46,054 nt of DNA from Escherichia phage vB_EcoS_ACG-M12: the sequence record NC_019404.1, one strand, 5' to 3'. Under the pieces are notes generated by a model. That model made no database searches, had not been told where the DNA came from, and saw nothing but the letters and a program-made list of their open reading frames with translations. Numbering within the stretch: the stretch's first letter is position 1; each line of letters starts with the position of its first letter. Both the position numbers and the translations under genes were made by a program. Of this stretch, positions 3,562-33,661 are shown in pieces.

Positions 3562-3580
3562 AATTCAAGGAGTCCTATCA

Positions 3581-3763
3581 ATGTGGGATGTTAAGTTATC
3601 TATCAGATTAATGGGTCGCAGTTGCAAGAATTGCACTCAAGAGTACATCGCGTCAGTTGCCGCAATCAGCGCTGAGGATGCGGTAGCGAAAGTAAAGGAT
3701 ATGTCGGGCGCTGACCCTGACACCCATAAATTCCTAGTAGCTTACATTCGTGAGCGAAAGTAA
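3581..3763 (+). CDS. hypothetical protein (60 aa)
   Basis: ATG with SD AAGGAG; followed by a terminator. Confidence 0.45.
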   Translation: MWDVKLSIRLMGRSCKNCTQEYIASVAAISAEDAVAKVKDMSGADPDTHKFLVAYIRERK

Positions 3764-3809
3764 AAAGTGTTATACCCTCGTTTAATTTTCATCTCTCTCT
3801 CGTTGTTTT

Positions 3810-3834
3810 AGCCCTCGCTTGAGGGCTTTTTTTC
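3810..3834 (+). terminator. rho-independent terminator
   Basis: Hairpin AGCCCTC-gctt-GAGGGCT followed by a T7 run. Confidence 0.7.
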
Positions 3835-3844
3835 GTCTGTAATA

Positions 3845-3853
3845 TGCTATAAT
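3845..3853 (+). promoter_or_regulatory. extended -10-like element TGCTATAAT upstream of terS
   Basis: TGn-TATAAT about 24 bp upstream of the ATG at 3877; no dyad box. Confidence 0.4.
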
Positions 3854-3876
3854 CTAGCCTCAACAAAGGAGGATTT

Positions 3877-4383: not shown

Positions 4384-4400
4384 CAATACGAGGGTATAAC

Positions 4401-5969
4401 ATGTCTTTAGTATGGGAAGAGATGACCATTCAGGAAAAGATGGCTGTCAAGGCGATATCAGAGCATAGTTTTGAGGGCTTTTTAAGGTGTTGGTTTTCAA
4501 TAACACAAGGCGAGCGATACATCCCTAACTGGCATCACAAGTATCTTTGCCGAATTATCGACGAGATTATTGCCGGGGAGCGCAAGGACACTATCATCAA
4601 CATAGCGCCCGGTAGCGGTAAGACAGAGATCGCTTCAATCCATTTCCCAGCCTACTCAATGGTTAAGCTGAAGAAGGTGCGAAACCTCAATATATCTTTT
4701 GCCGACTCACTGGTAAAGCGCAACTCCAAGCGCGTGCGTGACCTTATCAAGTCACCAGAATTTCAGTCGCTTTGGCCTTGCAAGTTTGGCACGTGCAAGG
4801 ACGATGAGCTTCAGGTTCTTGATGAGAGCGGGAAGGTTAGGTTTGAGTCAATATCAAAGGCGGCGGGAGGTCAGATTACTGGCGCTCGTGGTGGCTATAT
4901 AACCGAAACATATAGCGGGGCCGTCTTATTAGATGATTTTGACAAGCCCGCAGATATGCTATCAGCAGTCTACCGAGCAAATAACCATGTAATGCTAAAA
5001 AACACAATTCGCTCCCGTCGTGCGAGTTCTGTAAAGGGAAAGGCAACGCCAATCATTTCGATACAGCAGCGATTGCACGTTAATGACTCAACCTGGTTCA
5101 TGATGGAAGGTGGGATGGGTATCGAATTCGATTTGATTAAGATACCAGCGTTGGTAACTGAGGATTACCTAGACACACTACCTGAATGGATTAAAGAACA
5201 GTTTGAAGAGGATGTCCTTAGTAGTGAATACATAGAGCGCGATGGAGTAAGGTATTACAGCTACTTCCCTAAAAAGGAGTCAGTCAATGACTTGGTTGCG
5301 ATGTGGGATAGTGACCCTTACACCTTCCTTAGTCAGTATCAACAAGAACCAGTAGCTCTAGGTGGCAACCTTATTAACGTAGATTGGTTCCAGCGCCTTA
5401 GCGACACGTTCAGACCTCCCGCTAAGTACGATTATAGATTTATAACTTGCGATACAGCTATGACTACAAAAAGTTATAGTGACTTCTCTGTCCTTCAATT
5501 GTGGGGTTATAAAGATGCTAAGATTTACCTTATTGACCAGCGCAGGGGGAAATGGGAAGCGCCCGAGTTAGAGGCAGAGTTAATCGATTTCGAGAAGAAA
5601 TCAAGGGCAACCAGTCAATCGGATGGTATCCTCCGAAAGATTATCATCGAGAAGAAAGCATCTGGAATCGGACTCATTCAATCAGCAAGTCGAGTCATGA
5701 GAACGCCAGTGGAACCTTATGTTCCTGATAATGACAAGTTAACAAGGGTGATGAGTGCGCTGCCACAGATTAAGGCTGGTAACGTAGTTCTTCCTGAGTC
5801 TGCGCCGTGGTTAAGCGGATTGCTTACTGAGATTGCGGCATTTACCGCTGACGACAGCCACAATCACGACGACCAAATTGATACCATGACAATGGCTATC
5901 AACCTGGTTCTGAACATTGCGGATGACCCTAAGGCGAGACTAATGCGCATAGCGGGAATAATAAAATAG
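4401..5969 (+). CDS. terminase large subunit (522 aa)
   Basis: Walker A IAPGSGKTEIAS in the N-terminal ATPase; size and position; acidic C-terminal nuclease-like region. Confidence 0.85.
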   Translation: MSLVWEEMTIQEKMAVKAISEHSFEGFLRCWFSITQGERYIPNWHHKYLCRIIDEIIAGERKDTIINIAPGSGKTEIASIHFPAYSMVKLKKVRNLNISFADSLVKRNSKRVRDLIKSPEFQSLWPCKFGTCKDDELQVLDESGKVRFESISKAAGGQITGARGGYITETYSGAVLLDDFDKPADMLSAVYRANNHVMLKNTIRSRRASSVKGKATPIISIQQRLHVNDSTWFMMEGGMGIEFDLIKIPALVTEDYLDTLPEWIKEQFEEDVLSSEYIERDGVRYYSYFPKKESVNDLVAMWDSDPYTFLSQYQQEPVALGGNLINVDWFQRLSDTFRPPAKYDYRFITCDTAMTTKSYSDFSVLQLWGYKDAKIYLIDQRRGKWEAPELEAELIDFEKKSRATSQSDGILRKIIIEKKASGIGLIQSASRVMRTPVEPYVPDNDKLTRVMSALPQIKAGNVVLPESAPWLSGLLTEIAAFTADDSHNHDDQIDTMTMAINLVLNIADDPKARLMRIAGIIK

Positions 5970-6038
5970 CACTAATTGCTAAACATTAATGCCATGGATG
6001 GTGTATAGTTACCTCACACAAGCGAAGGGAGATAAAAG
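5965..6038 (+). promoter_or_regulatory. conserved intergenic cassette (box overlaps the terL stop TAG; TATAGTTAC at 6004-6012)
   Basis: AATAGCACTAATTGCTAAA ... GTGTATAGTTACC ... AGCGAAGGGAG. Confidence 0.55.
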
Positions 6039-6347
6039 ATGAAAGCAGTATTTAAAGGTTACAAGAAAAATGGTTATCTTAATTTTACTTTTGGTAAAAT
6101 TTATGAGCTATCAACGGCAACTGAGGCTTTCGGATTCTTAAAAGTGACTGATGACGATGGATTTAATGGAGTAATTATCCCAGGTGACACCTATGATTTC
6201 GAGGTGCTGATTCCGGATGAATTTATCAATAAAAAAAGCAATTTAAATATTACATTAATGGCGAAGTGGTTACTAAGACAAAGTTCGACGATACGCTATT
6301 GTGTGTTAAGGACTTTGAAAGAGATGGCATTGATACATCATCAATAA
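6039..6347 (+). CDS. hypothetical moron-like protein (102 aa) between terL and portal
   Basis: Own cassette upstream and terminator downstream; N-terminus FKGYKKNGY resembles gene 18912. Confidence 0.5.
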   Translation: MKAVFKGYKKNGYLNFTFGKIYELSTATEAFGFLKVTDDDGFNGVIIPGDTYDFEVLIPDEFINKKSNLNITLMAKWLLRQSSTIRYCVLRTLKEMALIHHQ

Positions 6348-6391
6348 AGTTCGAGGTAAAATTCGAGTAACCACAAAAGCTATGATAAACT

Positions 6392-6413
6392 AGCCCCTAC
6401 ATGGGGCTTTTTT
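6392..6413 (+). terminator. rho-independent terminator
   Basis: AGCCCC-tacat-GGGGCT followed by a T6 run. Confidence 0.65.
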
Positions 6414-6427
6414 ATTGGAGAAATGCA

Positions 6428-7684
6428 ATGGTAAAAACAGACAGCTACGCCAATATCTTTCTTGGCGGCAGTGACGGTAGTGAGATTTACGGAAGTTTAC
6501 AGAATCAGGCGCCTACAATTCTGGCTTCGCTTTATGCGGATAATGCACTTGTGCGTCGAATTATTGACACAATCCCAGAAACAGCATTGGCAGCAGGGTT
6601 CCATATTGATGGTATTGATGACGAACCTGCGTTCTGGTCGCGCTGGGATGATCTTGAGATGACGCAGAATATCAACGATGCCTGGTCATGGGCTCGGTTG
6701 TTCGGTGGTGCGGCAATTGTCGCTATCGTTAAGGACAATAGAGCGCTAACAAGTCCAGTCAGAGAGGGTGCTGAACTTGAAACGGTTCGTGTTTACGACC
6801 GCACGCAAGTGAAAGTGCAAAATCGCGAAGAGAATCCACGTAACGCACGCTTTGGTAAGCCTCTGACGTATCGCATCACCACTAACGAAAGCGATATGTT
6901 CTACGACGTGCACTACAGTCGCATTCACATTATCGATGGCGAGCGTGTACCTAACGCAATGCGTAGACAAAATGATGGCTGGGGTCGCAGTGTCCTTTCC
7001 AGTGACATTCTCGACTCAATCAAGGATTACACCAACTGCGAGCGACTCGCCACGCAATTACTTAGACGTAAACAGCAGGCTGTATGGAAAGCGAAAGGCC
7101 TGGCTGAGTTGTGTGATGATAGCGAAGGTTTTGGCGCTGCAAGATTGCGACTGGCGCAGGTTGATAACAACAGTGGCGTAGGTCAGGCGATTGGTATTGA
7201 TGCCGAATCTGAAGAGTATAGCGTTCTAAACTCTGACATTGGTGGGATTGATGCGTTCCTGGACAAGAAGTTTGACAGAATCGTAGCACTGAGCGGTATC
7301 CATGAAATCATCCTCAAGAACAAGAACGTTGGTGGCTTATCATCCAGTCAGAATACGGCGCTTGAGACATTCCACAAGCTGATTGACCGTAAGCGCAACG
7401 CTGAACTACTGCCCATTCTTGAGTTCTTAATACCGTTCATCGTAAACGCAGAAGAATGGTCAGTTGAGTTTAGCCCTCTAGACCATGAGTCAAGCAAGGA
7501 TAAAGCGGAGGTTCTGGAGAAGAGCGTAAACAGCATCGCAGCACTAATTGCAGCCGGAGCTATGGATATCAAAGAGGCACGCGATACACTACGCACTATC
7601 GCACCAGAGATTAAGATTGGTGATAATGATATTCAGACCGAGGAATCGGAGTTAATTACAGAGACGGAGGTTGTAATTGCGTAA
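6428..7684 (+). CDS. portal protein (418 aa)
   Basis: Position after the terminase; size; acidic C-terminus; start moved to the in-frame ATG 8 nt after GGAG because the track start lies in the terminator. Confidence 0.6.
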   Translation: MVKTDSYANIFLGGSDGSEIYGSLQNQAPTILASLYADNALVRRIIDTIPETALAAGFHIDGIDDEPAFWSRWDDLEMTQNINDAWSWARLFGGAAIVAIVKDNRALTSPVREGAELETVRVYDRTQVKVQNREENPRNARFGKPLTYRITTNESDMFYDVHYSRIHIIDGERVPNAMRRQNDGWGRSVLSSDILDSIKDYTNCERLATQLLRRKQQAVWKAKGLAELCDDSEGFGAARLRLAQVDNNSGVGQAIGIDAESEEYSVLNSDIGGIDAFLDKKFDRIVALSGIHEIILKNKNVGGLSSSQNTALETFHKLIDRKRNAELLPILEFLIPFIVNAEEWSVEFSPLDHESSKDKAEVLEKSVNSIAALIAAGAMDIKEARDTLRTIAPEIKIGDNDIQTEESELITETEVVIA

Positions 7685-7749
7685 ATTAACTGGTTTCGGT
7701 GAGGGGTAATGAAAAATGAATTTGATGGCTTTTAGTGAGGAGAATTGTG

Positions 7750-8859
7750 ATGTGTAAGATCCGCTATGACAGTGCAAAGGTAAAGGTCCGATTTGATGAA
7801 AACGGATTCCTGGTTGATACCCCGATTGTTGCGCGCGTCGGGGTGCAAACCTACTACCTTCCAGACGGTACAGAACGCAGAGAATTTAGACCAGCCTCAG
7901 AGGTCTTTAAACCTGATTCTCTTGCTAGTTATCAGGGTAAACCAATTACCTTGGGTCATGTTTTTGTTAACTCAGAGAATGCCAAAGAGGTCGTTGTGGG
8001 CGCGGTATCTGGGTCAGCTATGCGTGAGGACTCTAATGTTATTGTTCCTCTAACCGTTTACGACAAGGAATCCATCGAGAAGGCAAAGTCCGGCATTGCT
8101 GGTGAGTTATCAGTAGGTTACTCCACTGTTGATATTGATTCGAAAGGTTGGGGTAGCAATGAAACTGGTGAGTATAAGCTGGACGGAGAATACCATTCAC
8201 AAGATGAAATCCCTTCTGATTGGGTCAGATTCGATGCCCTGCAAACTGAAATCAAAGTAAATCACGTCGCTCTTGTCTATCAGGGCCGCGCTGGAGTAGC
8301 CAAACTTAATTTTGACGCTCAGCAGGAAAACCCGTATACTGGCAGCGTTGATTCTATTAAAGAGGACGTAAAAGAAATGGTTAAGATTAAACTCGACGGT
8401 GCTCAGGAGTTTGAAATTGCTCCCGAAGTCGCCGCACACATTGAAGCAGTTAAGGCCGACTTAGCAAAAGAGAAAGCAAAAGCTGACGCTCTTGAAGCTG
8501 AGCGTGATGCGCTTAAGGATAAAGTTGATGCAATGCCAGCAGAAATCGAGAAAGCAGTTGCTAAAGCGAAAGCAGACGCAGACGCGCTCGCAGCTTTGGT
8601 TGCTGTTGCTGCTGATGCTGGTGTTAAAGCTGATGGTCTGGATGCTAAAGGCATTAAAGTAGCTTACGTTAAAGAAATCTCCGGCCTTGATGTTTCGGAG
8701 AAGTCTGACGCATACATCGACGCAGCGTTCGACATTGCCAAAGAATCTGATAAAATGGCTGAAGTACGTAAAGCGACTACCGCTTCCGACAAATCTGACA
8801 GCGCCGATGAGCCTAAGAAATTAGACCCGCGTGCTCGTTTAGCTAAAATTAAGAAATAA
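7750..8859 (+). CDS. prohead scaffold/protease-like protein with Ala/Lys/Glu-rich coiled-coil C-terminus (369 aa)
   Basis: Position between portal and capsid; C-terminal AKEKAKADALEAERDALKDKVDA-type low-complexity helix; start at the ATG after AGGAG. Confidence 0.5.
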   Translation: MCKIRYDSAKVKVRFDENGFLVDTPIVARVGVQTYYLPDGTERREFRPASEVFKPDSLASYQGKPITLGHVFVNSENAKEVVVGAVSGSAMREDSNVIVPLTVYDKESIEKAKSGIAGELSVGYSTVDIDSKGWGSNETGEYKLDGEYHSQDEIPSDWVRFDALQTEIKVNHVALVYQGRAGVAKLNFDAQQENPYTGSVDSIKEDVKEMVKIKLDGAQEFEIAPEVAAHIEAVKADLAKEKAKADALEAERDALKDKVDAMPAEIEKAVAKAKADADALAALVAVAADAGVKADGLDAKGIKVAYVKEISGLDVSEKSDAYIDAAFDIAKESDKMAEVRKATTASDKSDSADEPKKLDPRARLAKIKK

Positions 8860-8871
8860 GGAGTTATAAAC

Positions 8872-9381
8872 ATGGCAATTCGTTCCGTAGCACTGGCTGG
8901 TATGGTTTCTGATACTTCTCTGTATAACATCGACGGCGCTTGTGTAGTTGGCGGCAGCGATGCAATTCCGGTTGGCACTTTTGTTGGTGTTACATCCGCT
9001 CAGCCTGTAGATGGTCACAAGGTTGTTGGACTCCCAGTCGTAACTGGCTCGGCAGTTAAACCTTATGGTGTTGTTGTTAAATCTCATTACGAGACTACAG
9101 ATGGCACAGCTCGCGTAAATGAAGCGGTTAACGTAATGACTCATGGTCGAATCTGGGTACGCACCACCCTAGCAGCTGCGCCAGTTTTTGGTAGCAAGGT
9201 TTTCGTAAACGCAAGTGGCGTTGTTGTTGCTGAGGCTGCTACCACTACTTGGGAGACTGGCTTTACATTTGCTGGCGGTTACATCGCAAACACTGGCGCA
9301 GACCCACAAAAACTGAGCGTTGATGGTGCCCTAGTTGAGGTTCAGCTTATCCAATCCGCGGACTCAACCGTTGCAGCATAA
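8872..9381 (+). CDS. possible head decoration or minor capsid protein (169 aa)
   Basis: Gly/Val-rich and beta-rich; lies between scaffold and major capsid; SD AAGGAG. Confidence 0.35.
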   Translation: MAIRSVALAGMVSDTSLYNIDGACVVGGSDAIPVGTFVGVTSAQPVDGHKVVGLPVVTGSAVKPYGVVVKSHYETTDGTARVNEAVNVMTHGRIWVRTTLAAAPVFGSKVFVNASGVVVAEAATTTWETGFTFAGGYIANTGADPQKLSVDGALVEVQLIQSADSTVAA

Positions 9382-9398
9382 TAGTTAAGACTAAACTA

Positions 9399-9420
9399 AC
9401 CCGCTTCGGCGGGTTTTTTA
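9399..9420 (+). terminator. rho-independent terminator
   Basis: ACCCGC-ttcg-GCGGGT plus T6; the same hairpin sequence recurs at 14138. Confidence 0.7.
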
Positions 9421-9460
9421 TTGCCTATCATCTCATCATTGCGTGGTCTAAAAACTCGTG

Positions 9461-9466
9461 TATAAT
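9461..9466 (+). promoter_or_regulatory. -10-like TATAAT upstream of the major capsid gene
   Basis: CGTGTATAATG about 40 bp upstream of the ATG at 9505. Confidence 0.35.
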
Positions 9467-9504
9467 GAACCCGTAGACACCTAAATGAAAAGGAACAATA
9501 AAGA

Positions 9505-10449
9505 ATGGCCATTAAATTTGATGCAGAACAAGCAAAAATCACCGCTCACCTCGAGCAAATGGGCGTAGAGAAAGCTGATGCCGCTGGTATCTGGACCGTT
9601 AAGCAGCTTACGGCTACTCTGAATCGCGCTTACGAAAAAGAATATGCGGACAACTCCGTTGTTAATATCTTCCCTGTAACCAATGAAATTCCTGGTCACG
9701 CGAAGTATTTCGAATATCCAGAATTTGATGGCGTTGGTATTGCTCAGATTATCGCTGATTACTCTGACGACCTGCCGCTGGTTGATGCTTTCATGACCGA
9801 GAAACAAGGCAAAGTTTTCCGTTTCGGTAACGCATTCCTGATTTCTACCGATGAAATTAAAGCTGGCGCCGCAACTGGTCAGTCTCTGTCAACTCGCAAA
9901 CAGGCTCTGGCTTTCGAAGCGCACGACAACCTGCTGGATAAACTGGTTTGGTCTGGTTCCACTCCTCACGGTATCGTAAGCGTATTCGATCAGCCTAACA
10001 TCAACAACGTTGTTGCAACGCCAAGCTGGAGCGAGCCGCTTAACGCAATCAATGACGTAACCGCGATGATTGATGCAGTTGAGACTTCAACTCAGGGTAT
10101 CCATCATGTGACTGATATTCTGCTTCCGGCATCCTCTCGTCGAGTAATGCAGCGCCTGGTTCCGAACACAACCCTGAGCTATGGTGAGTTGTTCACTCGT
10201 AACAACCCTGGCCTGACTATTCGTTTCCTGCAGTTCCTGGATAACTACGATGGCGCAGGTGGTAAAGCCGCTCTGGCGTTTGAGAAAAACCCGCTGAACA
10301 TGTCTATCGAGATTCCAGAAGCTACAAATGTACTTCCTGGTCAACCGAAAGATTTGCACTTTAAGTACCCGGTAACTTCTAAAGCGACAGGTTTGATTGT
10401 TTATCGTCCTCTTACGATGGCTGTAATCAAAGGAATCACCTTCGCGTAA
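9505..10449 (+). CDS. major capsid protein (314 aa)
   Basis: Size and position; strong SD; flanked by terminators as expected for an abundantly expressed gene. Confidence 0.7.
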   Translation: MAIKFDAEQAKITAHLEQMGVEKADAAGIWTVKQLTATLNRAYEKEYADNSVVNIFPVTNEIPGHAKYFEYPEFDGVGIAQIIADYSDDLPLVDAFMTEKQGKVFRFGNAFLISTDEIKAGAATGQSLSTRKQALAFEAHDNLLDKLVWSGSTPHGIVSVFDQPNINNVVATPSWSEPLNAINDVTAMIDAVETSTQGIHHVTDILLPASSRRVMQRLVPNTTLSYGELFTRNNPGLTIRFLQFLDNYDGAGGKAALAFEKNPLNMSIEIPEATNVLPGQPKDLHFKYPVTSKATGLIVYRPLTMAVIKGITFA

Positions 10450-10455
10450 TAAATC

Positions 10456-10477
10456 GCCCTCTTCGGAGGGCTTTTTT
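10456..10477 (+). terminator. rho-independent terminator
   Basis: GCCCTC-ttcg-GAGGGC plus T6. Confidence 0.7.
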
Positions 10478-10504
10478 ACGTCTGTACCAAATGGATTTGT
10501 TCGG

Positions 10505-10510
10505 TTATAA
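10505..10510 (+). promoter_or_regulatory. -10-like TATAAT upstream of gene 10542
   Basis: GGTTATAATCAC about 30 bp upstream of the ATG. Confidence 0.3.
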
Positions 10511-10541
10511 TCACTCAATCAGATAAACAAAGGAGAAAAAA

Positions 10542-10787
10542 ATGATTCGTTTAGAACATACAGGCGCTTGCCTTATCGTTTACAAAGGTGAGAAATATTT
10601 ACCTGGCGACGCTTTCGAGGTTGATGTAATTTGTGACGGTCTTAAGCGCTTAATCGCAGAGGGTAAACTCACCATTGAAGGTGATGCTAAAGCAACAAAA
10701 CAGATCGCGCAAGAAGTTGTTAGCAAGAAAAAGCGCAAAGAACCGAAAACCATCTCCGAAGCTGAGACTGGTAACGAGTACAAATAA
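10542..10787 (+). CDS. hypothetical protein (81 aa)
   Basis: SD AAAGGAG; Lys-rich C-terminus. Confidence 0.45.
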   Translation: MIRLEHTGACLIVYKGEKYLPGDAFEVDVICDGLKRLIAEGKLTIEGDAKATKQIAQEVVSKKKRKEPKTISEAETGNEYK

Positions 10788-10793
10788 TAAACA

Positions 10794-10815
10794 GGGCGCT
10801 TCGGCGTCCTTTATT
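10794..10815 (+). terminator. rho-independent terminator
   Basis: GGGCGC-ttcg-GCGTCC followed by TTTATT. Confidence 0.5.
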
Positions 10816-10828
10816 GTATGGAGCTAAT

Positions 10829-11230
10829 ATGAATGATGCAATTTTGGCGTTTATGCGCTCGCTTGTTCCTGCGCTCAAGGCAGTGGATGACGAATCAATT
10901 AATGTATGGATTGATCTGGCACGTCTATATGTATGCGAAAGCAAGTTTGGAGCAGACAAAGACAAGGCTATCGCGCTTTATGCACTGCACCTGATGCTTT
11001 CTGATGGTGCATTCAAGGGTGAGAGTGAAGGCTTGGAAACATACAGTCGTAGAATGGCAAGCTATGCGCTGAGCGGTGAATTCTCCATTACCTATGATAA
11101 CCAATCAGCAATCCAGGGTGATTTATCATCCTCCTCCTGGGGCCGTATGTACAAAGCACTGCTCCGCAAGAAAGGTGGCGGCTTTGGATTGATTACTTCC
11201 GCTGGTGGCGGTGGGTGCGGTTGCCGATGA
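10829..11230 (+). CDS. head-tail connector/adaptor candidate (133 aa)
   Basis: Position in the head-to-tail block; start at the ATG after GGAG (track start is TTG). Confidence 0.4.
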   Translation: MNDAILAFMRSLVPALKAVDDESINVWIDLARLYVCESKFGADKDKAIALYALHLMLSDGAFKGESEGLETYSRRMASYALSGEFSITYDNQSAIQGDLSSSSWGRMYKALLRKKGGGFGLITSAGGGGCGCR

Positions 11231-11598
11231 ACTACAACGAAATCGAATCAATTACTCGCGCTGGCATTAACTTCTTTAGTGATGCCAATGGCGTTTACGA
11301 GATGAGCACTGGTGCTGGATATGTTGAAATCGTTAATGGCATTGAAGTAGACGTTCCAGCGCAAACATTACAACTAAAAGGCTTAGTGCGAGAAATAAAG
11401 ACGCGCGATATCGATGGTGAGTTTATCCAGTTTGGCGATAAGCGCGGAATCTTCACGTCCCAGGTTGAAATTAAGCAGGGTTATCAGATTAAAGTCGATG
11501 GCGAGACTTTTGTTGTTGTTGACCCGCGCCCAGTTAAACCAACCGGCATAGTCGTTGGTTATAGGCCAATTCTTCGCAGGGTGGCTACTTATGGCTAG
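11227..11598 (+). CDS. head-tail joining protein candidate (123 aa)
   Basis: ATGA overlap with the upstream gene; positional call. Confidence 0.4.
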   Translation: MNYNEIESITRAGINFFSDANGVYEMSTGAGYVEIVNGIEVDVPAQTLQLKGLVREIKTRDIDGEFIQFGDKRGIFTSQVEIKQGYQIKVDGETFVVVDPRPVKPTGIVVGYRPILRRVATYG

Positions 11599-12028
11599 AA
11601 ATATTGGAAGCGTGGCTACTTTTGAGAAATCTATTGCTGACTGGATTAACAGAGCAGATAAGGGATTTGAAATTGTAGTCGCCAACACGGTTACCAAGAC
11701 AGCCAACGCAATTGTGGACTTATCCCCGGTCGATACTGGTAGGTTCAAGGCTAACTGGCAAATCACCGCAAACTCACCAGCTCAGCAATCACTGAATGAG
11801 TACGATCAGACTGGTGGGCAGACAAAAACATATCTCGCCAGACAGGCTAGAGCGGTCGCTAACTCAAAAGCTACGAGTGTTATTTATATAACCAACCGAC
11901 TTGATTACGCAGCAGATCTTGAGTACGGAGCTTCAAATCAGGCTCCAGCTGGCGTTTTGGGAGTGGTGCAAGCAAGGTTGGGCAGGTATTTCCAGGAAGC
12001 GGTAGAGGAGGCTCGTCGTGCAATATGA
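11591..12028 (+). CDS. tail completion/neck protein candidate (145 aa)
   Basis: In-frame ATG overlapping the upstream stop; positional call. Confidence 0.4.
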   Translation: MARNIGSVATFEKSIADWINRADKGFEIVVANTVTKTANAIVDLSPVDTGRFKANWQITANSPAQQSLNEYDQTGGQTKTYLARQARAVANSKATSVIYITNRLDYAADLEYGASNQAPAGVLGVVQARLGRYFQEAVEEARRAI

Positions 12029-12419
12029 ATTATCATTAGCAGCAAGGAAATTCGTCGACGATTTGTTGGTAAATGAATTTCCGGTCAGGTATCCAGTTGC
12101 GTGGGAGAATTGTAAGTTTACCCCCCCTGCCGATGGCTCAATCTGGCTTAAGTACGACTACACGGAAGTTGACACCGTAACTTACGGATTAAGCAGGAAG
12201 TGCAAATACTACGTAGGCATGGTGCAGGTTTCTGTTTTCTTCAGTCCTGGAACTGGAATTGACAGGCCCAGACAGATCGCTAATCAATTGGCAGAATCTA
12301 TCGTTGATGGTACAATGCTTGACAGCGGGACCATTTATGAGTCTGGAGTTGTTAACCCCGTTATCAAATCCAAGTCTGGGTGGTTTATCCCGGTTCGTTT
12401 TTATGTTCGTCTAGACTAA
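12018..12419 (+). CDS. tail terminator candidate (133 aa)
   Basis: GTG start 7 nt after GGAGG; positional call. Confidence 0.4.
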   Translation: MQYELSLAARKFVDDLLVNEFPVRYPVAWENCKFTPPADGSIWLKYDYTEVDTVTYGLSRKCKYYVGMVQVSVFFSPGTGIDRPRQIANQLAESIVDGTMLDSGTIYESGVVNPVIKSKSGWFIPVRFYVRLD

Positions 12420-12434
12420 CAAAAGGAAAAATAC

Positions 12435-13091
12435 ATGGCCCATCTCAGCAATGGCACGCAGGTCTTCGTAGAAGGCTCTCGCGGAGCTGCAATTGACGTA
12501 ACAGCAATTTCTAACGCAGTTACACCTGTTTTAACTGTATCTGACGCATCCGGCGTGGCTGAGGGTGATTACCTGCTTTTCACCTCCTCAGCCTCTGCGC
12601 TTCTGGCTGACAAGCAAGTTCGCGTAACCGCAGTCTCTGGCACCTCGGTAACTGTTGAGGGTATTGATACCTCAAGCACTACCAAATTCCCTGCTGGTTT
12701 AACTGGTGAGGTTGTCAAGATTACTTCATGGTTCGAAGTTCCGTGCGTTCAGGACGTATCTACTGACGGCGGCGAGCAGCAGTTCGTTAACTTCCAGTGT
12801 CTTTCTGATGACCGTGAACAGCAGATTCCGACTTATAAATCTGCCGTAACAAACACCTTTACCTTTGCTCACGAGTACACCAACCCGGTTTATCCGGTTC
12901 TGCGTAACTACGATGAGTCTGGCCAGGTTGTTGCGATTCGCCTGTTCGTACCTCGCGCTCAGGAAATGCGCTTGCAGTCCGGCACTATCGCTTTCAACGA
13001 CACCCCTACCATTGGTGTTAACGAAATCGAAACGGTATCTATCGCGGTATCCATTCGTGGTCGCTTGTCCTCCGTGGCAGCTGAAGTTTAA
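12435..13091 (+). CDS. major tail protein (218 aa)
   Basis: Position directly upstream of the chaperone/tape-measure genes; followed by a strong terminator. Confidence 0.6.
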   Translation: MAHLSNGTQVFVEGSRGAAIDVTAISNAVTPVLTVSDASGVAEGDYLLFTSSASALLADKQVRVTAVSGTSVTVEGIDTSSTTKFPAGLTGEVVKITSWFEVPCVQDVSTDGGEQQFVNFQCLSDDREQQIPTYKSAVTNTFTFAHEYTNPVYPVLRNYDESGQVVAIRLFVPRAQEMRLQSGTIAFNDTPTIGVNEIETVSIAVSIRGRLSSVAAEV

Positions 13092-13098
13092 AACACAA

Positions 13099-13121
13099 AC
13101 CCTCTTCGGAGGGTTTTTTTA
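13099..13121 (+). terminator. rho-independent terminator
   Basis: ACCCTC-ttcg-GAGGGT plus T7. Confidence 0.7.
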
Positions 13122-13124
13122 TTG

Positions 13125-13200
13125 ATAGCACTTTTTGTTAAAGACTAAAAATCAAAATGCTGTATAGTTCAATCATCGAAACGAAATGAGAAATTAAGAA
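13125..13200 (+). promoter_or_regulatory. conserved intergenic cassette (GATAGCACTTTTTGTTAAA ... TGTATAGTT ... CATCGAAACGAAATGAG)
   Basis: Precedes gene 13201. Confidence 0.5.
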
Positions 13201-13467
13201 ATGAATAGTAAGTTAGAAGTATTATCCGCACTTCGCGGCCCTATTTGTGTAGCTGCGCTGGTTGCCTTTTATGCAGCAGTTCAGATTATCAACCCAACAA
13301 GAGCGGAAACAGCAAACTCTGACGCGGCAAAATACAATTCGGTTTTCTCTGAGCACAAGGCAATCTGCGAGAAGGCTTCTGGTAGCAAGATTGATCAGGT
13401 TCTGAAGTATGGCAAGGAAATCTGCGTAGATATCGCGCACGACATTGCAAAAGAAAGCACTAAGTAA
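13201..13467 (+). CDS. hypothetical protein with N-terminal hydrophobic segment (88 aa), moron-like, inside the tail module
   Basis: Own cassette; hydrophobic stretch ICVAALVAFYAAVQII near the N-terminus. Confidence 0.45.
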   Translation: MNSKLEVLSALRGPICVAALVAFYAAVQIINPTRAETANSDAAKYNSVFSEHKAICEKASGSKIDQVLKYGKEICVDIAHDIAKESTK

Positions 13468-13503
13468 TACAATAATCAAACACTAAAAAAGAGGATTAAC
13501 GAG

Positions 13504-13818
13504 ATGGCAAAGTTCAAACTTTCACTAGCGGCACTACCTGACTTTAAACTGCCTGTAAAATTCAAGCTAGCTAACGACCAGGATGTAGAGGTTATGTTCA
13601 CAGTTAAGCACAAGAAAACTTCTGAACTGCAGGAGTTGCTTAACAAGGAAAACCTGAGCACTAAAGAGCTTATTATGGCAATTGCCTCTGATTGGGATTT
13701 AGAGGAAGAGTACAATGAGGAAAACGTTAATGAGTTCTCCGATCTGTTCCCGGCTTCAACCGTTGCTTTGACTACTGCTTACATGCAGGCACTGGCGGGT
13801 CAGCGAGTAAAAAACTAA
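13504..13818 (+). CDS. tail assembly chaperone (G-like, 104 aa)
   Basis: Immediately upstream of the tape measure; ends with the slippery heptamer A_AAA_AAC then TAA. Confidence 0.6.
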   Translation: MAKFKLSLAALPDFKLPVKFKLANDQDVEVMFTVKHKKTSELQELLNKENLSTKELIMAIASDWDLEEEYNEENVNEFSDLFPASTVALTTAYMQALAGQRVKN

Positions 13819-14138
13819 AGAGGGCGGTGTATCTACAGTACCAGTCAGAGCCAACTGATGCCGAACTGGAGGCTATTGGGATGCGCCGCTCTGATTACGA
13901 AGATGAAGAGCCTGAAGTTTTACACTTCGACGAAAACATGATGAAAGCATGGGACATTTACTGTTCAATGGCTACGCAGTGGAGAGTCGGAGCTAACGGA
14001 GCTACAGGTCTAGATTACAACGTGCTAAATTTCCTCTTTAGAGTGTATAATGTCTCAGAAGAAGAATTGGTGCTCAGCGATTTACGCATCCTTGAAGCTA
14101 AGGCTCTTGAGATGATGGATAACCTGAGAAAAAAATAA
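13504..14138 (+). CDS. predicted frameshifted chaperone fusion (GT-like) via -1 slip at 13809-13815
   Basis: ORF 13827..14138 is in the -1 frame relative to 13504..13818 and has no ATG of its own (track start is GTG); classic arrangement before the tape measure. Confidence 0.5.
13809..13815 (+). other. candidate -1 programmed frameshift site A_AAA_AAC
   Basis: X_XXY_YYZ heptamer in the zero frame (GTA AAA AAC TAA); the -1 frame stays open into ORF 13827..14138. Confidence 0.55.
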
Positions 14139-14158
14139 CCCGCTTCGGCGGGTTTTCT
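14138..14158 (+). terminator. terminator-like hairpin (attenuator?)
   Basis: ACCCGC-ttcg-GCGGGT followed by TTTTCT; the tape measure gene starts 16 nt later. Confidence 0.4.
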
Positions 14159-14173
14159 ATTATGGAGGCTTAG

Positions 14174-17152
14174 ATGGCAACAAATGAATTAGCCGGAATC
14201 ACACTAGCCGTAGACGTCTCGCAGGTAGACAGGGGAACGCAATCCCTACAAAAGTTCAGACAGGCCAACCAACAGGCTGCATCTGGGATTAGTGAGTTCG
14301 TCAATGCTGAGCAGGTTGCTAAAAACCAGGCTAGAGATACCGCTCGCGCACTTGCTGAGCAACAGGCATCTTTAGCTAAATTGCAAACAGCTATTGATCC
14401 AACCGCTGCAAAGTTCCGCAAGCTGCAAGAGGCTGCTGTAGGTCTGGATAAGGCATTCGCGGCTGGAGTAGTTCCTGATGAGGAGTTTTTCCGATTAGGT
14501 GAAGCCCTTGAAACGCAGAACGCAAAACTTGCTCGTTCACGTGCGGCACTAACTGAGGAGGGTAGAGCGGCAGCTCAGGCCGCAAAAGATAAAGCAAAGG
14601 CAAAGGCTGAAGCTGATAGGTTCATTGCGTCACTTGAGCGCCAGGCTCAAGCGGCAACATTGACGCGCGAAGAGTATCTAAAGTTACAGGCTGCTCAGCT
14701 TGGCGTAAGTTCTCAGGCGGCACCTATTATTGACAGAATCGCCGATGCATCACAGAAGGCAAACACCCAGCTAATTGCTCAGAGTAAGGCTTTTCAGAAA
14801 TCAGGATTAAGCGCGGGTCAATACAAGAATGCAATTTCTCAGCTGCCAGCGCAGATTACTGATATTGGCACGTCGCTTGCTGGCGGCATTCCGATTTGGC
14901 TTATTGCAATTCAGCAAGGTGGGCAGATCAAGGATGCATTTGGCGGTATTGGTAACACATTTAGATTCGCGCTTGCAGCCTTAAACCCATTCAATGTAGC
15001 TGTTGGTGTTTTGGGTGGGGCGCTTGTAGCTCTTGGTGTTGGTGCGGCTCAGGCTGAAAGTGAATTCAGAGCATTAAACTCCGCAATTGCTTTCTCCAAC
15101 AACTCTACAATCGCATCAATTTCGCAGGTTAGAGAGTTGGTTAGCTCTGTTTCTGATGCAACAGGTGCCACCAGAGGACTTGTGACTAGCATCGCAACAA
15201 GCCTTATTGAGCAAGGGAACCTTACGCTGACGCAGATTGACAAGATTACTAAATCGACCGCAAGATGGGCGCAGTTGACAGGTAAGGATGCGAAGGAGAT
15301 TACTGGTTACTATAACCAGATTGCAAGCGACCCAATCCAGGGTTTAGTTGATTTGGATAAGCGCTTTAACTTCCTCACACAGGGGCAGTTGACGACAATC
15401 GAAAACCTGAGAAAGACAAAGGGAGAAGTTGAGGCCGTTACTGCTGCGATTGATATTTTCAGCAAGTCTCAGGAAGCCAACCTTAACGACATAGCTGCGC
15501 AGTTAACTCCGCTTGAGCTAGCCTGGAATGATTTCAGAAAGTACATCTCTGATATATGGGATGCAATTAGCCGTAGAACGGTTGGGGCTCTAAACCTGTT
15601 TGTTGACGTAATCGCCGGAACAATTGAGCAGATCAGGGTCTTCATTAATCAGGGTGATGCGCTGATTGGTGAATTCGTAATTAGCGCAACTCAGGCATTG
15701 CAGAACATTCCTGGTCTTGATGGCGTTGGTGATGATGTTATCAAGGGGCAGCAGAAGATTATCGATGCCGCCAAGAAGCAAAACCTTGAGCTAGAGAAGT
15801 CTATCAAGGAGCGCGATGCCAGAATCAGAGAGGGAGAGCTTGGTTACGTTACTCGCAGAGAAAATCAGAATACCAATGAGCAGTCAGGTACTGATGAGGA
15901 ATTTGCAAAAAGGAAGAAGGCGCTTCAGGATGAGCTTGATGCGATCAAGAAGAACAGGAAAGAAGAAAATAGTAGGGTTAAGGAGCAAAGAGATTTAACA
16001 ATTGGTTATGAATATGGCGTTCTGGCGCTTCAGGCTCAACTCAAGGCGCTTCAGGAAAACAGGGATATTGGCGCAGTAATAAGCAATGAGCGCAAGCAGT
16101 ATCTTCAGGAGGAGGCCAAATTCAGGATTCTTGAGCAGAGACAACTTGATGGCTCAATTACCAAAGAGCAAGCAAGACTTCTCATTGAAAAGGATAAAGT
16201 TCTTGAGTTAGCCAGACAGAAGGCTGAGCTAGGTGATCAGATTGTTTTGCAGGAGCGAGCTAATAAGTTAGCTGAAGATAACCGCAAGAAGATTCTTCAG
16301 ATTAACAATGAGGCAAGTAACATTGATTTGGGTGCTGGTTTATCATCTCGCGAGCAGCAGAGAGCCAAAGAGATTCAGGCTCTTCAATCCAATCAGGTTA
16401 ATGCTGGTGGTTCTGTTGATGATGTTGATTTTCAGCAATTACTGGAAGCAAGAAAGGAATACTACAAGCAGGAGGATAATCTTAGGTCAGACTGGCAATC
16501 CGGTGTAACATCCACTCTCGCCGACTTGACAGAGAAGTACACTGACTACAACCAGATTGCTAAGGACTTAACTGTTGCGGCATTCGATGGAATTACAGAA
16601 CAGATTACAAACCTTGTAACCACTGGTGAGACTAATTTCAGAGATTTCACAGCAAGCATCCTCAAAATGATTGCGAAGATTGCAACTCAGTTACTTTTGG
16701 TTAAGGCCATCGAATCAACATTGACTAGTTTTGGTGGTGGGGGAGGTAACGTGTTTGGCTCACTTGCATCTGCCATAGGTTTTGCTGGTGGCGGCTATAC
16801 TGGTGATGGTGGGAAGTATCAGCCAGCAGGAACGGTGCACCGTGGTGAGTTTGTATTCACAAAAGAAGCGACAAGCAGAATTGGCGTGAAAAACCTTTAC
16901 GCGCTGATGAAGGGTTATGCGAATGGCGGCGCTGTTGGTGGTCCTTCCGGTTATGCGAATGGTGGTTTGGTTTCTGGTGGAACTGATGTTAATGTTAGCG
17001 GCATCACTGTTAACGTAAATTCCGGTTTGGGTGGCGACTCAGAGCAAGCAAAAGCATTGCAGAGTGGCGTCAAGGCTATCGTAGCGGAAGAAATTGCTCA
17101 GTCTTTCCAGCAGGGTGGCAGGGCGTATGCCTATTTGAGAGGTTTTAACTAA
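14174..17152 (+). CDS. tail tape measure protein (992 aa)
   Basis: Largest tail gene after the chaperones; long Ala/Gln/Glu-rich coiled coil; Gly-rich C-terminal region. Confidence 0.8.
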   Translation: MATNELAGITLAVDVSQVDRGTQSLQKFRQANQQAASGISEFVNAEQVAKNQARDTARALAEQQASLAKLQTAIDPTAAKFRKLQEAAVGLDKAFAAGVVPDEEFFRLGEALETQNAKLARSRAALTEEGRAAAQAAKDKAKAKAEADRFIASLERQAQAATLTREEYLKLQAAQLGVSSQAAPIIDRIADASQKANTQLIAQSKAFQKSGLSAGQYKNAISQLPAQITDIGTSLAGGIPIWLIAIQQGGQIKDAFGGIGNTFRFALAALNPFNVAVGVLGGALVALGVGAAQAESEFRALNSAIAFSNNSTIASISQVRELVSSVSDATGATRGLVTSIATSLIEQGNLTLTQIDKITKSTARWAQLTGKDAKEITGYYNQIASDPIQGLVDLDKRFNFLTQGQLTTIENLRKTKGEVEAVTAAIDIFSKSQEANLNDIAAQLTPLELAWNDFRKYISDIWDAISRRTVGALNLFVDVIAGTIEQIRVFINQGDALIGEFVISATQALQNIPGLDGVGDDVIKGQQKIIDAAKKQNLELEKSIKERDARIREGELGYVTRRENQNTNEQSGTDEEFAKRKKALQDELDAIKKNRKEENSRVKEQRDLTIGYEYGVLALQAQLKALQENRDIGAVISNERKQYLQEEAKFRILEQRQLDGSITKEQARLLIEKDKVLELARQKAELGDQIVLQERANKLAEDNRKKILQINNEASNIDLGAGLSSREQQRAKEIQALQSNQVNAGGSVDDVDFQQLLEARKEYYKQEDNLRSDWQSGVTSTLADLTEKYTDYNQIAKDLTVAAFDGITEQITNLVTTGETNFRDFTASILKMIAKIATQLLLVKAIESTLTSFGGGGGNVFGSLASAIGFAGGGYTGDGGKYQPAGTVHRGEFVFTKEATSRIGVKNLYALMKGYANGGAVGGPSGYANGGLVSGGTDVNVSGITVNVNSGLGGDSEQAKALQSGVKAIVAEEIAQSFQQGGRAYAYLRGFN

Positions 17153-17223
17153 TAGCACTAAATGGTAAAGCCAAAAGGATTTGGCTTGCTATAATCAACT
17201 CATTAAAAGCATGAGGTGATAAA
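17151..17223 (+). promoter_or_regulatory. conserved intergenic cassette (AATAGCACTAAATGGTAAA ... TTGGCTTGCTATAATC)
   Basis: Box directly after the tape-measure stop; TGCTATAAT extended -10-like box at 17187-17195. Confidence 0.5.
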
Positions 17224-17721: not shown

Positions 17722-18052
17722 TTACTGCACTCAAATCCAAAATGGAGGCGGCTCGTTCTCTAACACGAACAACGTCAGAATTGTTAGCTTCGGCAATGGT
17801 TATCGGCAAATTGGAATCGGGGGGTATAACACAAACGTTAGAACATACTCAATGACCTATACAAACAAGAACTGGCGTGATGTGATGGACTTTTGCTTCA
17901 ACCACATCATTAACCCGTTCTTCTGGACTACTCCGCAGGGTGATACTTCAATGTTTGTGATTCAACAGGATAGTATTAGCGTGACACCAGTCAGCAAGGA
18001 AGTTCAAACTGTAAACATGCAATTCGTAGAAGTATTTAGCTCAATGCGTTAA
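17702..18052 (+). CDS. minor tail protein, lambda M-like (116 aa)
   Basis: VRIVSFGNGYRQ...TYSMTY...FFWTTPQG resembles the lambda M family as recalled from memory; start at the ATG overlapping the HNH 3' end. Confidence 0.6.
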   Translation: MAIDTFNYCTQIQNGGGSFSNTNNVRIVSFGNGYRQIGIGGYNTNVRTYSMTYTNKNWRDVMDFCFNHIINPFFWTTPQGDTSMFVIQQDSISVTPVSKEVQTVNMQFVEVFSSMR

Positions 18053-18057
18053 ACTAA

Positions 18058-18077
18058 TCCCCTGACGGGTTTTTTTA
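18058..18077 (+). terminator. weak hairpin plus T7 run
   Basis: CCC-tgac-GGG followed by TTTTTTT. Confidence 0.35.
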
Positions 18078-18089
18078 TTGGAGAACTAT

Positions 18090-18845: not shown

Positions 18846-18911
18846 ATAGCACGAATTGCTAAAGACGATTTAAAAAGATGGGGTATAGTTACCCAATCGA
18901 AACGAGAGGAG
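18845..18911 (+). promoter_or_regulatory. conserved intergenic cassette (AATAGCACGAATTGCTAAA ... GGTATAGTTACC ... CAATCGAAACGAGAGGAG)
   Basis: Box at 18845-18863, TATAGTTAC at 18884-18892. Confidence 0.55.
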
Positions 18912-19274
18912 ATGAAAAAAATGTTCCAAATTAAATTTAACGGATACAAAAAAGACAAAGAAGAGTGCGCTGGTTTGTTTTTTGTTGGCCACAATTACCC
19001 CTGCAGTGTTGTTGACTCAAACAGATACTATCAGACGCAGGATGAGAATGGCAATATTGTAAAGTTTAAAAGTATTTTTCGTGATGCTTGTTACGACTTT
19101 TCAAGAATTGATACTCAGAGCAAGGTATTAGACGAGCATGATAACAAGATGAAATATCGAATGAATGGTGTTGATGTCACTAAGTCATTCTTTGATGATA
19201 AGCTACTGGAAGTTGAGATGCTTAAATCAAGAGATGTTTCAGTATTTATAGATTTTGAGGTTTATTTTGAATAA
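18912..19274 (+). CDS. hypothetical moron-like protein (120 aa) between the L-like and K-like genes
   Basis: Own cassette and terminator-like hairpin; N-terminus FNGYKKDKEE resembles gene 6039. Confidence 0.5.
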   Translation: MKKMFQIKFNGYKKDKEECAGLFFVGHNYPCSVVDSNRYYQTQDENGNIVKFKSIFRDACYDFSRIDTQSKVLDEHDNKMKYRMNGVDVTKSFFDDKLLEVEMLKSRDVSVFIDFEVYFE

Positions 19275-19332
19275 ACAAAATTAGTGTTAAACTAGGTCAA
19301 TCGAAAGGTTGGCCTTTTTTATTGGAGATAAA

Positions 19333-20651: not shown

Positions 20652-20675
20652 ACCCGCCTAGTGCGGGTTTTTTAT
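20652..20675 (+). terminator. terminator-like hairpin
   Basis: CCCGC-ctagt-GCGGG plus T6. Confidence 0.5.
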
Positions 20676-24114: not shown

Positions 24115-24144
24115 ATAAAGCCCCTTAATTGGGGCTTTTCTTTT
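24115..24144. terminator. bidirectional terminator between convergent genes
   Basis: AGCCCC-ttaatt-GGGGCT flanked by an A-run and a T-run. Confidence 0.65.
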
Positions 24145-33650: not shown

Positions 33651-33661
33651 TATCAATCTCC

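Follow-up and report, generated by a model that had tools for sequence, protein, structure and literature searches.

The late region of phage T1 is described, in the passages of PMC11447400 that cite Roberts et al. 2004, as a series of transcriptons flanked by terminators, and papers on these phages give 16-21 terminators per genome. In the T1 record (AY216660.1), a rho-independent terminator is annotated directly after the G-T frameshift product, 8 nt before the ribosome-binding site (RBS) of the tape measure protein (TMP) gene, and several other terminators abut RBSs in that record. A T|TMP terminator is also annotated in the EC3a record (KY398841.1), and equivalent sites are annotated as terminators in the AHP24 record (KF771236.1). 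A repeat, aaATAGCACnnnTTGnTAAAA, has been reported in TLS, T1, Rtp, and Rogue1, where its function is unknown (PMC11447400). Here we describe the terminator-like hairpins in the late region of Escherichia phage vB_EcoS_ACG-M12 (NC_019404.1), a complete T1-like siphophage genome of 46,054 nt that we refer to as the window. The T|TMP terminator annotated in EC3a is identical in sequence to the one in the window.

From this analysis, we conclude that the hairpins are in all likelihood ordinary Rho-independent terminators that are read by host RNA polymerase and divide the late region into short transcription units. The marks of an intrinsic terminator are found together here, namely a hairpin, a U-tract, placement after a stop codon in the orientation of the genes, and compensatory changes. 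The hairpins have GC-rich stems of 6-9 bp, mostly with cUUCGg tetraloops, with energies of -9.7 to -13.9 kcal/mol, and they are co-oriented with the genes. The expected hairpin formed at 10 of the 11 sites that were folded, with most z-scores below -2.6, the exception being the site at 18058. Downstream of the hairpins at 3810, 6392, 9398, 10456, 13097, 18058, 19294, and 20652, the sequence continues with T6-T7, and the U-tract is broken or short at 14137 (TTTTCTATT), 10793 (TTTATTG), and 24117. Between 3877 and 24111, every one of the strong plus-strand hairpin/T-run sites lies in an intergenic gap, and by our own count these gaps make up 984 of 20,235 nt (4.9%). Most hairpins are at most 22 nt from the upstream stop codon, many of them at a distance of 0-8 nt, and the one at 3810 is ~46 nt past the preceding small open reading frame. 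A search of the window against Rfam matched no family apart from a tRNA. Termination, its efficiency, and promoter activity are predicted throughout from sequence, positions, conservation, covariation, and the presence or absence of cassettes, which were read directly. A role at the level of DNA (pac, origin, or nicks) was considered and rejected because the co-oriented hairpins track transcription, follow stop codons, and have U-tracts on the sense strand only (except at 24117).

Terminator-divided late genes accompanied by promoter-like or repeat elements are the hallmark of the T1 and TLS descriptions, and the window matches them. It belongs to the same family as the T1-like phages and has the same gene order, with terminators after the decoration, capsid, DUF7444-position, tail tube, GT, M, I, and J genes. 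It also shares the ATAGCAC...TAAA repeat upstream of genes, and several terminators abut annotated RBSs. No categorical difference from the T1-like transcriptons was found. The tail tube terminator is absent from the T1 record itself, the window has the same hairpin at two junctions, and it carries an HNH insertion and a pair of phrog_14592 cassettes where many of its relatives have empty slots. The feature is thus real and functional-looking, but it is ordinary and already annotated in T1, EC3a, and AHP24. It carries little weight as a discovery, given that terminator-punctuated late operons were already described for T1; its interest lies in being a family-wide example of gene dosage in a virion operon that would be set by fixed terminators, terminator-promoter pairs, and terminator-RBS fusions.

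For the family-wide comparison, we used 13 annotated relatives from three subfamilies and added from IMG/VR, by their T protein, 63 Drexlerviridae loci together with 17 more distant loci, mostly outgroup siphophages. Family counts refer to 77 Drexlerviridae loci (the window and 76 others), and a terminator was counted if no more than 45 nt separated a terminator-like hairpin from the stop codon. A terminator follows T in 77/77 genomes and the major tail protein (MTP) gene in 77/77, in the latter case never with an immediate Shine-Dalgarno sequence. It follows the major capsid protein (MCP) gene in 75/76, the DUF7444 gene in 40/43, M in 66/75, the decoration gene in 51/56, and I in all 29, and it follows L in none of 75. 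Each well-sampled junction has 19-29 distinct hairpin sequences. The position of the predicted terminator is conserved in the family, and its stem sequence is not.

At the T|TMP junction (14136..14176, plus strand), the T stop codon TAA (14136-14138) is overlapped by a hairpin, AACCCGCTTCGGCGGGTT, that starts at 14137 and runs to 14154 (centroid hairpin -11.8 kcal/mol). The U-tract TTTTCTATT follows, and then the TMP Shine-Dalgarno sequence GGAGG at 14164-14168 and the TMP ATG at 14174. An earlier note on this DNA had placed the hairpin close before TMP, and it does lie 17 nt from the ATG. Each of the 77 family loci carries a hairpin with a U-tract at this place. The first base of the hairpin always falls between -2 and +2 nt relative to where the T stop codon ends, and its last base falls 15-25 nt before the TMP ATG. 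The hairpin comes in 26 variants of -10.5 to -14.9 kcal/mol, with a degenerate form in locus L067 (-6.0). When the family sequences were aligned by anchoring on the loop, 93% of cells were paired and 6 of the 8 pairs changed on both sides; none of 500 shuffles equaled this, and slid controls scored far lower. RNAalifold, run on a MAFFT alignment of 20 diverse genomes, recovered only the T|TMP terminator hairpin, with 4 compensatory pairs. No hairpin was found at T|TMP in the outgroup siphophages, where the T stop codon overlaps the TMP start instead. Annotators of T1-like phages may find it useful that the T|TMP terminator is universal in the family examined and overlaps the chaperone stop codon.

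The T gene (13827-14138) follows G (13504-13818), and the Pfam matches on these two chaperone frames are Phage_TAC_4 and DUF1799. A slippery heptamer, A_AAA_AAC (13809..13815, plus strand), lies directly before the G stop codon (13816-13818), and a -1 frameshift from G into T is predicted there. The T frame also has an internal in-frame GGAGG (13868-13872) followed by an ATG (13881), from which several relatives annotate an independent T, and T may be made both as a GT fusion and alone.

The earlier note had also read several hairpins as running directly into a conserved word, TTTATTGGAG, plus ATG, and had proposed this word as a restart signal. The word is present exactly at 6411, 18074, and 19318, where 0.12 copies are expected, and the hairpins do run into it before portal (ATG 6428), L (18090), and K (19333). 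The arrangement does not extend to 13099, which reads TTTTTTTATTGATAGCAC... and shares TTTATTG alone with the TTTATTGGAG sites, its next start codon lying ~85 nt away behind a promoter-like module. At 18058, the TTTATTGGAG junction is present, but the hairpin is degenerate (~3-4 GC pairs, uncalled by the scan, fold z -0.65); the relatives have a proper 5-6 bp stem at this M|L position. In an alignment of 8 junctions from 6 genomes, 3 subfamilies, and 3 slots, TTTTTATTGGAG is invariant, (G)TTAAACTAG is conserved upstream of the stems, and the stems are variable. The reading of TTTATTGGAG as a dedicated restart signal is not supported, since the word is explained by the (U)n-purine-U end of a terminator and an ordinary Shine-Dalgarno GGAG. 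Plausible restarts of transcription (after 3810, 9398, 10456, and 13097) would start from promoter-like modules that are separate from this word. The composite TTTTTT(T)ATTGGAG fits a predicted terminator 3′ element, (U)6-7 + A-U, followed by the Shine-Dalgarno sequence of the next gene.

In the folds, TAAACTA can contribute its T to a pair with the tail A, which lengthens the stem and agrees with the better termination reported for adenosines placed immediately 5′ of a hairpin (bioRxiv 10.64898/2026.07.06.736697). As a word, TAAACTA is not over-represented in the genome (6 copies, 7.6 expected), but its placement is non-random, with 4 of the 6 copies directly 5′ of hairpins. The hairpin found at 14137 also stands in 98 viral contexts that are unrelated, where it is again followed by TT[A/T][A/T]TG. 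Strong terminators are reported to have the form GC(U)7RU, whose purine takes position -2 and whose last U takes position -1 from the release site, resembling an elemental pause (the HUB model; bioRxiv 10.64898/2026.05.29.728758). Six window sites end in SS-U6-7-AU, which supplies the U-tract, the purine, and the last U of this form, and those at 14137, 10793, 3810, 10456, and 24117 do not. The window sites depart from the model in that most carry GG or CC in place of GC at -11/-10 and U6 in place of U7, and their termination positions are predicted from sequence. The relaxed form SS-U6-8-RU is matched at 6/11 window sites and the exact GC-U7-RU at 0/11; the exact form is found at 9/77 family T|TMP sites. 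Across the family, SS-U6-8-RU is matched at 53-83% of sites at the decoration, MCP, MTP, M, and I junctions, and the two poorest junctions are DUF7444|connector (10%) and T|TMP (35%). This would fit leakiness by design at these two junctions, a pattern that M|L breaks.

These data suggest two ways in which the terminators could act. Promoter-like modules follow the terminators at 3810, 9398, 10456, and 13097 within 20-60 nt, and these terminator-then-promoter sites would end one unit, start the next, and reset the downstream genes. The abundant capsid and tail-tube proteins would thereby be placed on their own strongly expressed transcripts. The terminator-then-RBS sites (6392, 10793, 14137, 18058, and 19294) would be leaky and act as fixed step-downs rather than switches. 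There is no room for a promoter between the hairpin and the Shine-Dalgarno sequence of portal, connector, TMP, L, or K, and therefore some read-through is logically required. The read-through coupling suggested in the earlier note is a reasonable idea if it is taken as a fixed design. The interrupted U-tract at 14137 is consistent with a leaky site, and the stop codons 0-8 nt from many hairpins, taken with reported ribosome hindrance, are a plausible general source of leakiness.

Partial intrinsic terminators set differential expression in phage late operons, such as T-phi after gene 10 of T7. The window resembles this case in that a leaky terminator (here predicted) follows a structural gene with high expression, and the essential genes beyond it rely on read-through. 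It differs in using host polymerase and not a phage RNA polymerase, and in having many more sites, several of them with new promoters (predicted).

Several points weigh against reading the hairpins as terminators that divide the late region. Our literature search found no transcript 3′-end or coverage data for any T1-like phage, the RNA-seq in PMC13250531 being from a T5-like phage. The number of terminator-like sites is in just moderate excess over shuffled sequence (29 vs 16.8 for positions 1-20000). In the covariation analysis, the loop served as a manually chosen anchor for the alignment, and the aligned sequences are phylogenetically related. M|L and TerL|portal have good U-tracts and yet no promoter before the essential genes that follow. 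Predicted terminator strength, tried as what separates sites with and without a downstream promoter, holds at 10793 and 14137 and fails at M|L and TerL|portal. A terminator after TerL would also lower the portal and head genes relative to terminase, which runs contrary to the expected stoichiometry unless there is abundant read-through or some other input.

Next, we considered whether the identity of two of the hairpins has a meaning of its own. The 20-mer AACCCGCTTCGGCGGGTTTT is present exactly, as the earlier note had stated, at 9398-9417 and 14137-14156 on the plus strand, and a variant with two mutually compensatory mismatches, AACCCTCTTCGGAGGGTTTT, lies at 13098. In shuffled sequence, 0 repeats of the 20-mer are expected, but this is the wrong null because IMG/VR has at least 120 stretches with AACCCGCTTCGGCGGGTTTT, which range in GC from 0.30 to 0.67 and nearly all of which show no similarity to the window. 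Among the matches listed, three contigs hold it twice, and it also occurs upstream of TerS in tunavirus SH6. The decoration|MCP hairpin is biallelic in the relatives, the two forms differing by a double compensatory change. CCCGC/GCGGG is found in the window, ECH1, SCS31, PCEc3, and the rogunavirus AHP24, and CCTCC/GGAGG in eight other relatives, whose T|TMP hairpin retains CCCGC/GCGGG. Within Braunvirinae, the T|TMP hairpin does not vary (17 loci examined), and therefore the two sites match in one lineage only; a duplicated core hairpin of any sequence was seen in 1 of 64 family regions. The U-tracts differ, reading GG-UUUUUU-AU at 9398 (UUUUUUAU) and GG-UUUUCU-AU at 14137 (UUUUCUAU), and the C in the latter is invariant across the 17 Braunvirinae loci. 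The downstream contexts differ as well, with a capsid promoter-like element after 9398 and no promoter before TMP after 14137. On this evidence, the identity of the 9398 and 14137 hairpins is a coincidence of a very common terminator word and not a paired signal. The emphasis that the earlier note laid on it has no demonstrated meaning, the word being common in unrelated phages, and a repeated terminator word should not be over-read. A pair of promoters, suggested by GTGTATAATG at 9458 and 14043, was rejected as chance (3 matches with at most 1 mismatch, 2.9 expected), and the 14043 copy is inside coding sequence.

If the identity were not a coincidence, the two hairpins could be related by descent, either copied or acquired from a common donor by short-patch recombination, and would then be small mobile regulatory units. 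We regard this as rather unlikely. It would account for an identity that spans 29 nt with 2 mismatches (A-N-T-AACCCGCTTCGGCGGGTTTT-N-TATT), for the mosaic decoration|MCP site in the relatives, where the CCCGC allele and the same TTTTTTATTGCC tail recur in the rogunavirus AHP24, and for a 28-mer, ...GGGTTTTTTATTGCC, in 13 unrelated viral contexts where 2.1 are expected under positional independence. However, the flanks of the two window copies are otherwise unrelated, and the T|TMP copy is invariant in the 17 Braunvirinae loci while the other site varies. Convergence is also plausible given the small sequence space of a 7-bp AACC..C-UUCG-G..GGUU hairpin. The hairpins as a group could instead be mainly RNA stability elements that, once the RNA has been processed, shield the 3′ ends of the capsid and tail tube mRNAs from exonucleases and cause little termination. 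Their place immediately 3′ of the most abundant structural genes, the very stable cUUCGg tetraloops, and the promoterless essential genes directly downstream, for which high read-through is needed, would all suit such a role. Yet the conserved U-tracts and (U)6-7-AU ends are features of termination and not of exonuclease blocks, and promoter-like modules after four of the sites are sensible only if transcription stops. As the main function this is improbable, and roles in stability and termination are not exclusive.

At T|TMP, two further mechanisms have to be set against a simple leaky terminator. The earlier note had suggested an attenuator at 14137, in which an alternative structure or a factor would switch between termination and read-through for TMP. 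The position directly before TMP and the weakened U-tract invite this idea, and a single-sequence fold hints at a long-range helix in which the TMP RBS pairs with the last stretch of the T frame. That helix was rejected, having a z-score of -0.95, which is not significant, and not being conserved across the 20 diverse genomes, in which RNAalifold found no conserved alternative structure of any kind. Moreover, no upstream sequence is complementary to the 5′ arm of the hairpin and no Rfam family matches, so a regulated attenuator is highly improbable. Alternatively, read-through could be coupled to translation, such that a frameshifted ribosome at the T stop codon covers the 5′ arm and blocks the hairpin, which we consider quite improbable. 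RNA polymerase would then enter TMP mainly on transcripts that are making GT, and TMP mRNA output would be tied to the frequency of frameshifting, a consequence to which we give equally little credence. The spacing to the T stop codon, held within 2 nt in 77/77 loci, is tighter than at MCP (3-22 nt) or MTP (2-23 nt), and the G stop codon comes immediately after a canonical slippery site, A_AAA_AAC. The outgroup phages couple T and TMP by stop/start overlap, so some coupling is evidently selected, and published work cited in bioRxiv 10.64898/2026.07.06.736697 reports that termination drops, by ribosome hindrance, when a terminator hairpin has a stop codon less than ~20 nt away. On the other hand, the tight spacing may simply reflect genome compaction and the use of the stop codon AA as an A-tract. 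The mechanism also needs tight transcription-translation coupling in late infection, and the GGAGG and ATG at 13868/13881 could allow frameshift-independent T, diluting the link. It is accordingly a long shot that the T-stop terminator of all 77 Drexlerviridae loci is a ribosome-gated valve making TMP mRNA in proportion to GT chaperone synthesis. If true, it would stand in, at the level of transcription, for the overlap of stop and start codons by which other siphophages couple T and TMP, and it would link programmed frameshifting to transcription termination.

We return to the reading of the hairpins as ordinary terminators for the remaining sites, all of which are on the plus strand unless stated. 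The late structural region has the order TerS, TerL, a small gene, portal, protease, decoration/cement, MCP, the DUF7444 gene, connector and neck genes, MTP, a small gene, G, T, TMP, HNH endonuclease, M, L, a small gene, K, I, and J. A predicted terminator upstream of TerS (3810..3834; hairpin AGCCCTCGCTTGAGGGCT and T7, -12.5 kcal/mol, z -3.3) is kept in the relatives and is followed by an extended -10-like promoter, TCGTCTGTAATATGCTATAATC. The terminator-RBS junction before portal (6386..6420; -13.3 kcal/mol, z -3.1) consists of TAAACTA, a hairpin at 6392-6408, and TTTTTTATTGGAG. After the decoration/cement gene (9392..9423; -12.0 kcal/mol), TAAACT precedes the first copy of hairpin AACCCGCTTCGGCGGGTT, and TTTTTTATTG follows it. 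The promoter-like element of the MCP gene (9505-10449) lies at 9439..9466, where TTGCGT and TATAAT are separated by 16 nt, and is conserved across Braunvirinae and Rogunavirinae.

Two observations concern this part of the late region. The 28-mer AACCCGCTTCGGCGGGTTTTTTATTGCC (window 9398-9425) is identical in 13 viral contexts with unrelated flanks, several of which continue into GGAG + ATG (IMG/VR loci L108, L121, L122, L123, L141, L152, L179, L188, L190, L192, L196, L202, L211, and L213); this could be strong convergence or a small mobile terminator unit. In tunaviruses (SH6, which is locus L013, ~9670-9765; T1 record 15062-15131), a promoter and then a hairpin with a T-run lie in the 5′ leader of the capsid gene. 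Both the promoter and the hairpin are annotated in the T1 record, and their order is opposite to the terminator-then-promoter order of the window.

After MCP, GCCCTCTTCGGAGGGC with T6 forms a predicted terminator (10456..10477; -12.2 kcal/mol, z -3.5) that is followed by a promoter-like ACGTCTGTA...TATAATC. The terminator after the DUF7444 gene is weak (10793..10816; AGGGCGCTTCGGCGTCCT then TTATTGTATGGAG, -11.6 kcal/mol, z -1.5) and leads straight to the Shine-Dalgarno sequence of the connector gene (ATG 10829). After MTP (12435-13091), the terminator at 13097..13124 consists of AAACCCTCTTCGGAGGGTTT and then TTTTATTG (GG-U7-AU; -11.5 kcal/mol, z -3.7). The promoter-like module at 13126..13168 behind it (TAGCACTTTTTGTTAA, 21 nt, TATAGT) would drive g13201 and the G/GT chaperone genes. 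Downstream of TMP (14174-17152), the M/L junction (18050..18083) has the M stop codon within TAAACTA, the degenerate hairpin, and TTTTTTTATTGGAG. The junction before K (19288..19327; -13.5 kcal/mol, z -4.1) has TAAACTA, hairpin AGGTCAATCGAAAGGTTGGCCT (19294-19315), and the same TTTTTTATTGGAG as before portal. Tail assembly gene I is followed by ACCCGCCTAGTGCGGGT and TTTTTAT (20652..20674), and a predicted bidirectional terminator (24117..24142; -13.9 kcal/mol) lies between the J-like tail gene on the plus strand and a convergent minus-strand gene.

The two phrog_14592 genes of the window each form part of a cassette. Cassette 1 comprises a promoter-like module at 5967..6009 (the direct-repeat motif TAGCACTAATTGCTAA, 21 nt, TATAGT) and a gene for a small protein at 6039..6369. 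Cassette 2 comprises a module at 18847..18889 (TAGCACGAATTGCTAA, 21 nt, TATAGT) and a gene at 18912..19274, and is absent from the L/K junction of most relatives. Both genes are preceded by a module of the form TAGCACnnnnTGCTAA, 21 nt, TATAGTTAC...ATCGAAACGA and followed by TAAACTAG-hairpin-TTTTTTATT|GGAG. The slots TerL|portal, M|L, and L|K are each filled by a cassette in some genomes and empty in others, and the L|K junction is 13 nt long in PCEc3, EC3a, OzMSK, and BEK2 compared with 490 nt with the cassette in the window. JulesPiccard has a cassette with the same hairpin at M|L instead. Paralogues of phrog_14592 ("virion structural protein") occupy these three slots in different Braunvirinae, with two copies each in the window and in JulesPiccard (L007 2248-2625 and 14371-14745). 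BLASTP between the two cassette proteins of the window gave no match (E 0.21), and their kinship is visible just by the shared PHROG profile.

Morons, described by Hendrix and colleagues, are units of promoter, gene, and terminator inserted between conserved genes of lambdoid phages. Such units, with a promoter-like module, are found at L|K, TerL|portal, and M|L between neighbours that are adjacent in relatives, and the stretches 5967-6420 and 18847-19327 of the window each hold a module, a small gene, and a terminator. Unlike the lambdoid cases, they are in a virulent T1-like phage, their terminator regenerates the downstream Shine-Dalgarno sequence, and phrog_14592 occurs in three slots. We propose that the cassettes are morons whose predicted terminator regenerates the downstream RBS. 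Since they end in a terminator-RBS junction and occupy different slots, the TTTATTGGAG-type motif has been multiplied. It may also be of use to annotators of T1-like phages that promoter-gene-terminator cassettes move among junctions sharing one terminator-RBS sequence. Promoter-early stem-loop (PeSL) cassettes, which Arbiol et al. reportedly presented in 2010, are said to mediate modular shuffling in T4-type phages. Like these, the window has conserved stem-loop and promoter sequences around variable genes, which could give short homology for gain and loss; the phage family, promoter type, and order of elements differ.

The cassette 1 gene (small gene 6039-6347) is frameshifted relative to EC3a and PCEc3 at an A7 run at 6231-6237. 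EC3a has A8 there, and PCEc3 keeps the ancestral frame by an interrupted run of equal length. The A7 state is common to ECH1 and SCS31, and the ancestral C-terminus, ...SSIKFEVKFE*, continues in the other frame to 6369. The gene could be a pseudogene, the run could be a homopolymer sequencing error, or expression could depend on slippage.

The modules of the cassettes belong to a larger set, the ATAGCAC repeat, whose 16-nt near-palindrome TAGCACNNNNTGNTAA occurs 20 times in the window, where 1.17 copies are expected. Examples are at 2117, 5967, 13126, 17153, 18847, 27585, 36164, and 40780 on the plus strand and at 25434, 25751, 44830, and 46012 on the minus strand. With few exceptions, the copies point the same way as the local genes, and many lie directly after a stop codon. 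In 16 of the 19 intergenic copies, the repeat is exactly 21 nt before a TATAGT/TATAAT-like hexamer, in many cases with ATCGAAACGA following. This rigid spacing would centre the repeat near -43, like an activator-dependent promoter. A helix-turn-helix protein that the phage encodes at 33144-33656 is a candidate for the factor acting on this TAGCA-N6-TGCTA repeat. A literature search for the bare word ATAGCAC returned unrelated primer sequences only. At 32099-32163, a plus-strand copy points into a region of minus-strand genes and is followed by the reverse complement of a minus-strand terminator, AACCTCCTTCGGGAGGTT (32146-32163); this copy may be an orphan or may give rise to a transcript antisense to the primase gene. 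At 39123-39168, a terminator-like hairpin, AGTAGCCGCGAAAGCGGCTATT (39142-39163), lies within the 21-nt spacer between the repeat motif and the -10-like hexamer.

An HNH endonuclease gene with its own predicted repeat-motif promoter occupies the TMP|M junction of the window (17153-17721). In most relatives (L003-L009), this junction is 33 nt long and has a hairpin, GGGGCTTCGGCCCC, directly before the M RBS and without a U-tract. JulesPiccard has a similar HNH insertion at L|K. The J-like tail gene of the window has no Shine-Dalgarno sequence (20682-20697). A -10-like TAGAAT (20682-20687) lies directly 3′ of the I|J terminator, 7 nt upstream of the annotated J ATG (20695); this TAGAAT/J-start sequence is kept in every relative examined, and the J-like gene transcript may be leaderless.

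A megablast of the window returned ~120 matching records. Its identity to ECH1 (Drexlerviridae, Braunvirinae, Guelphvirus) is 96.4% in the region of interest, and the window is placed in the same genus. The window, ECH1 (MN164484.2), and SCS31 (ON081052.1) are each exactly 46,054 nt long, and over the 6-kb region compared the window differs by ~4% from ECH1 and by ~8% from SCS31.

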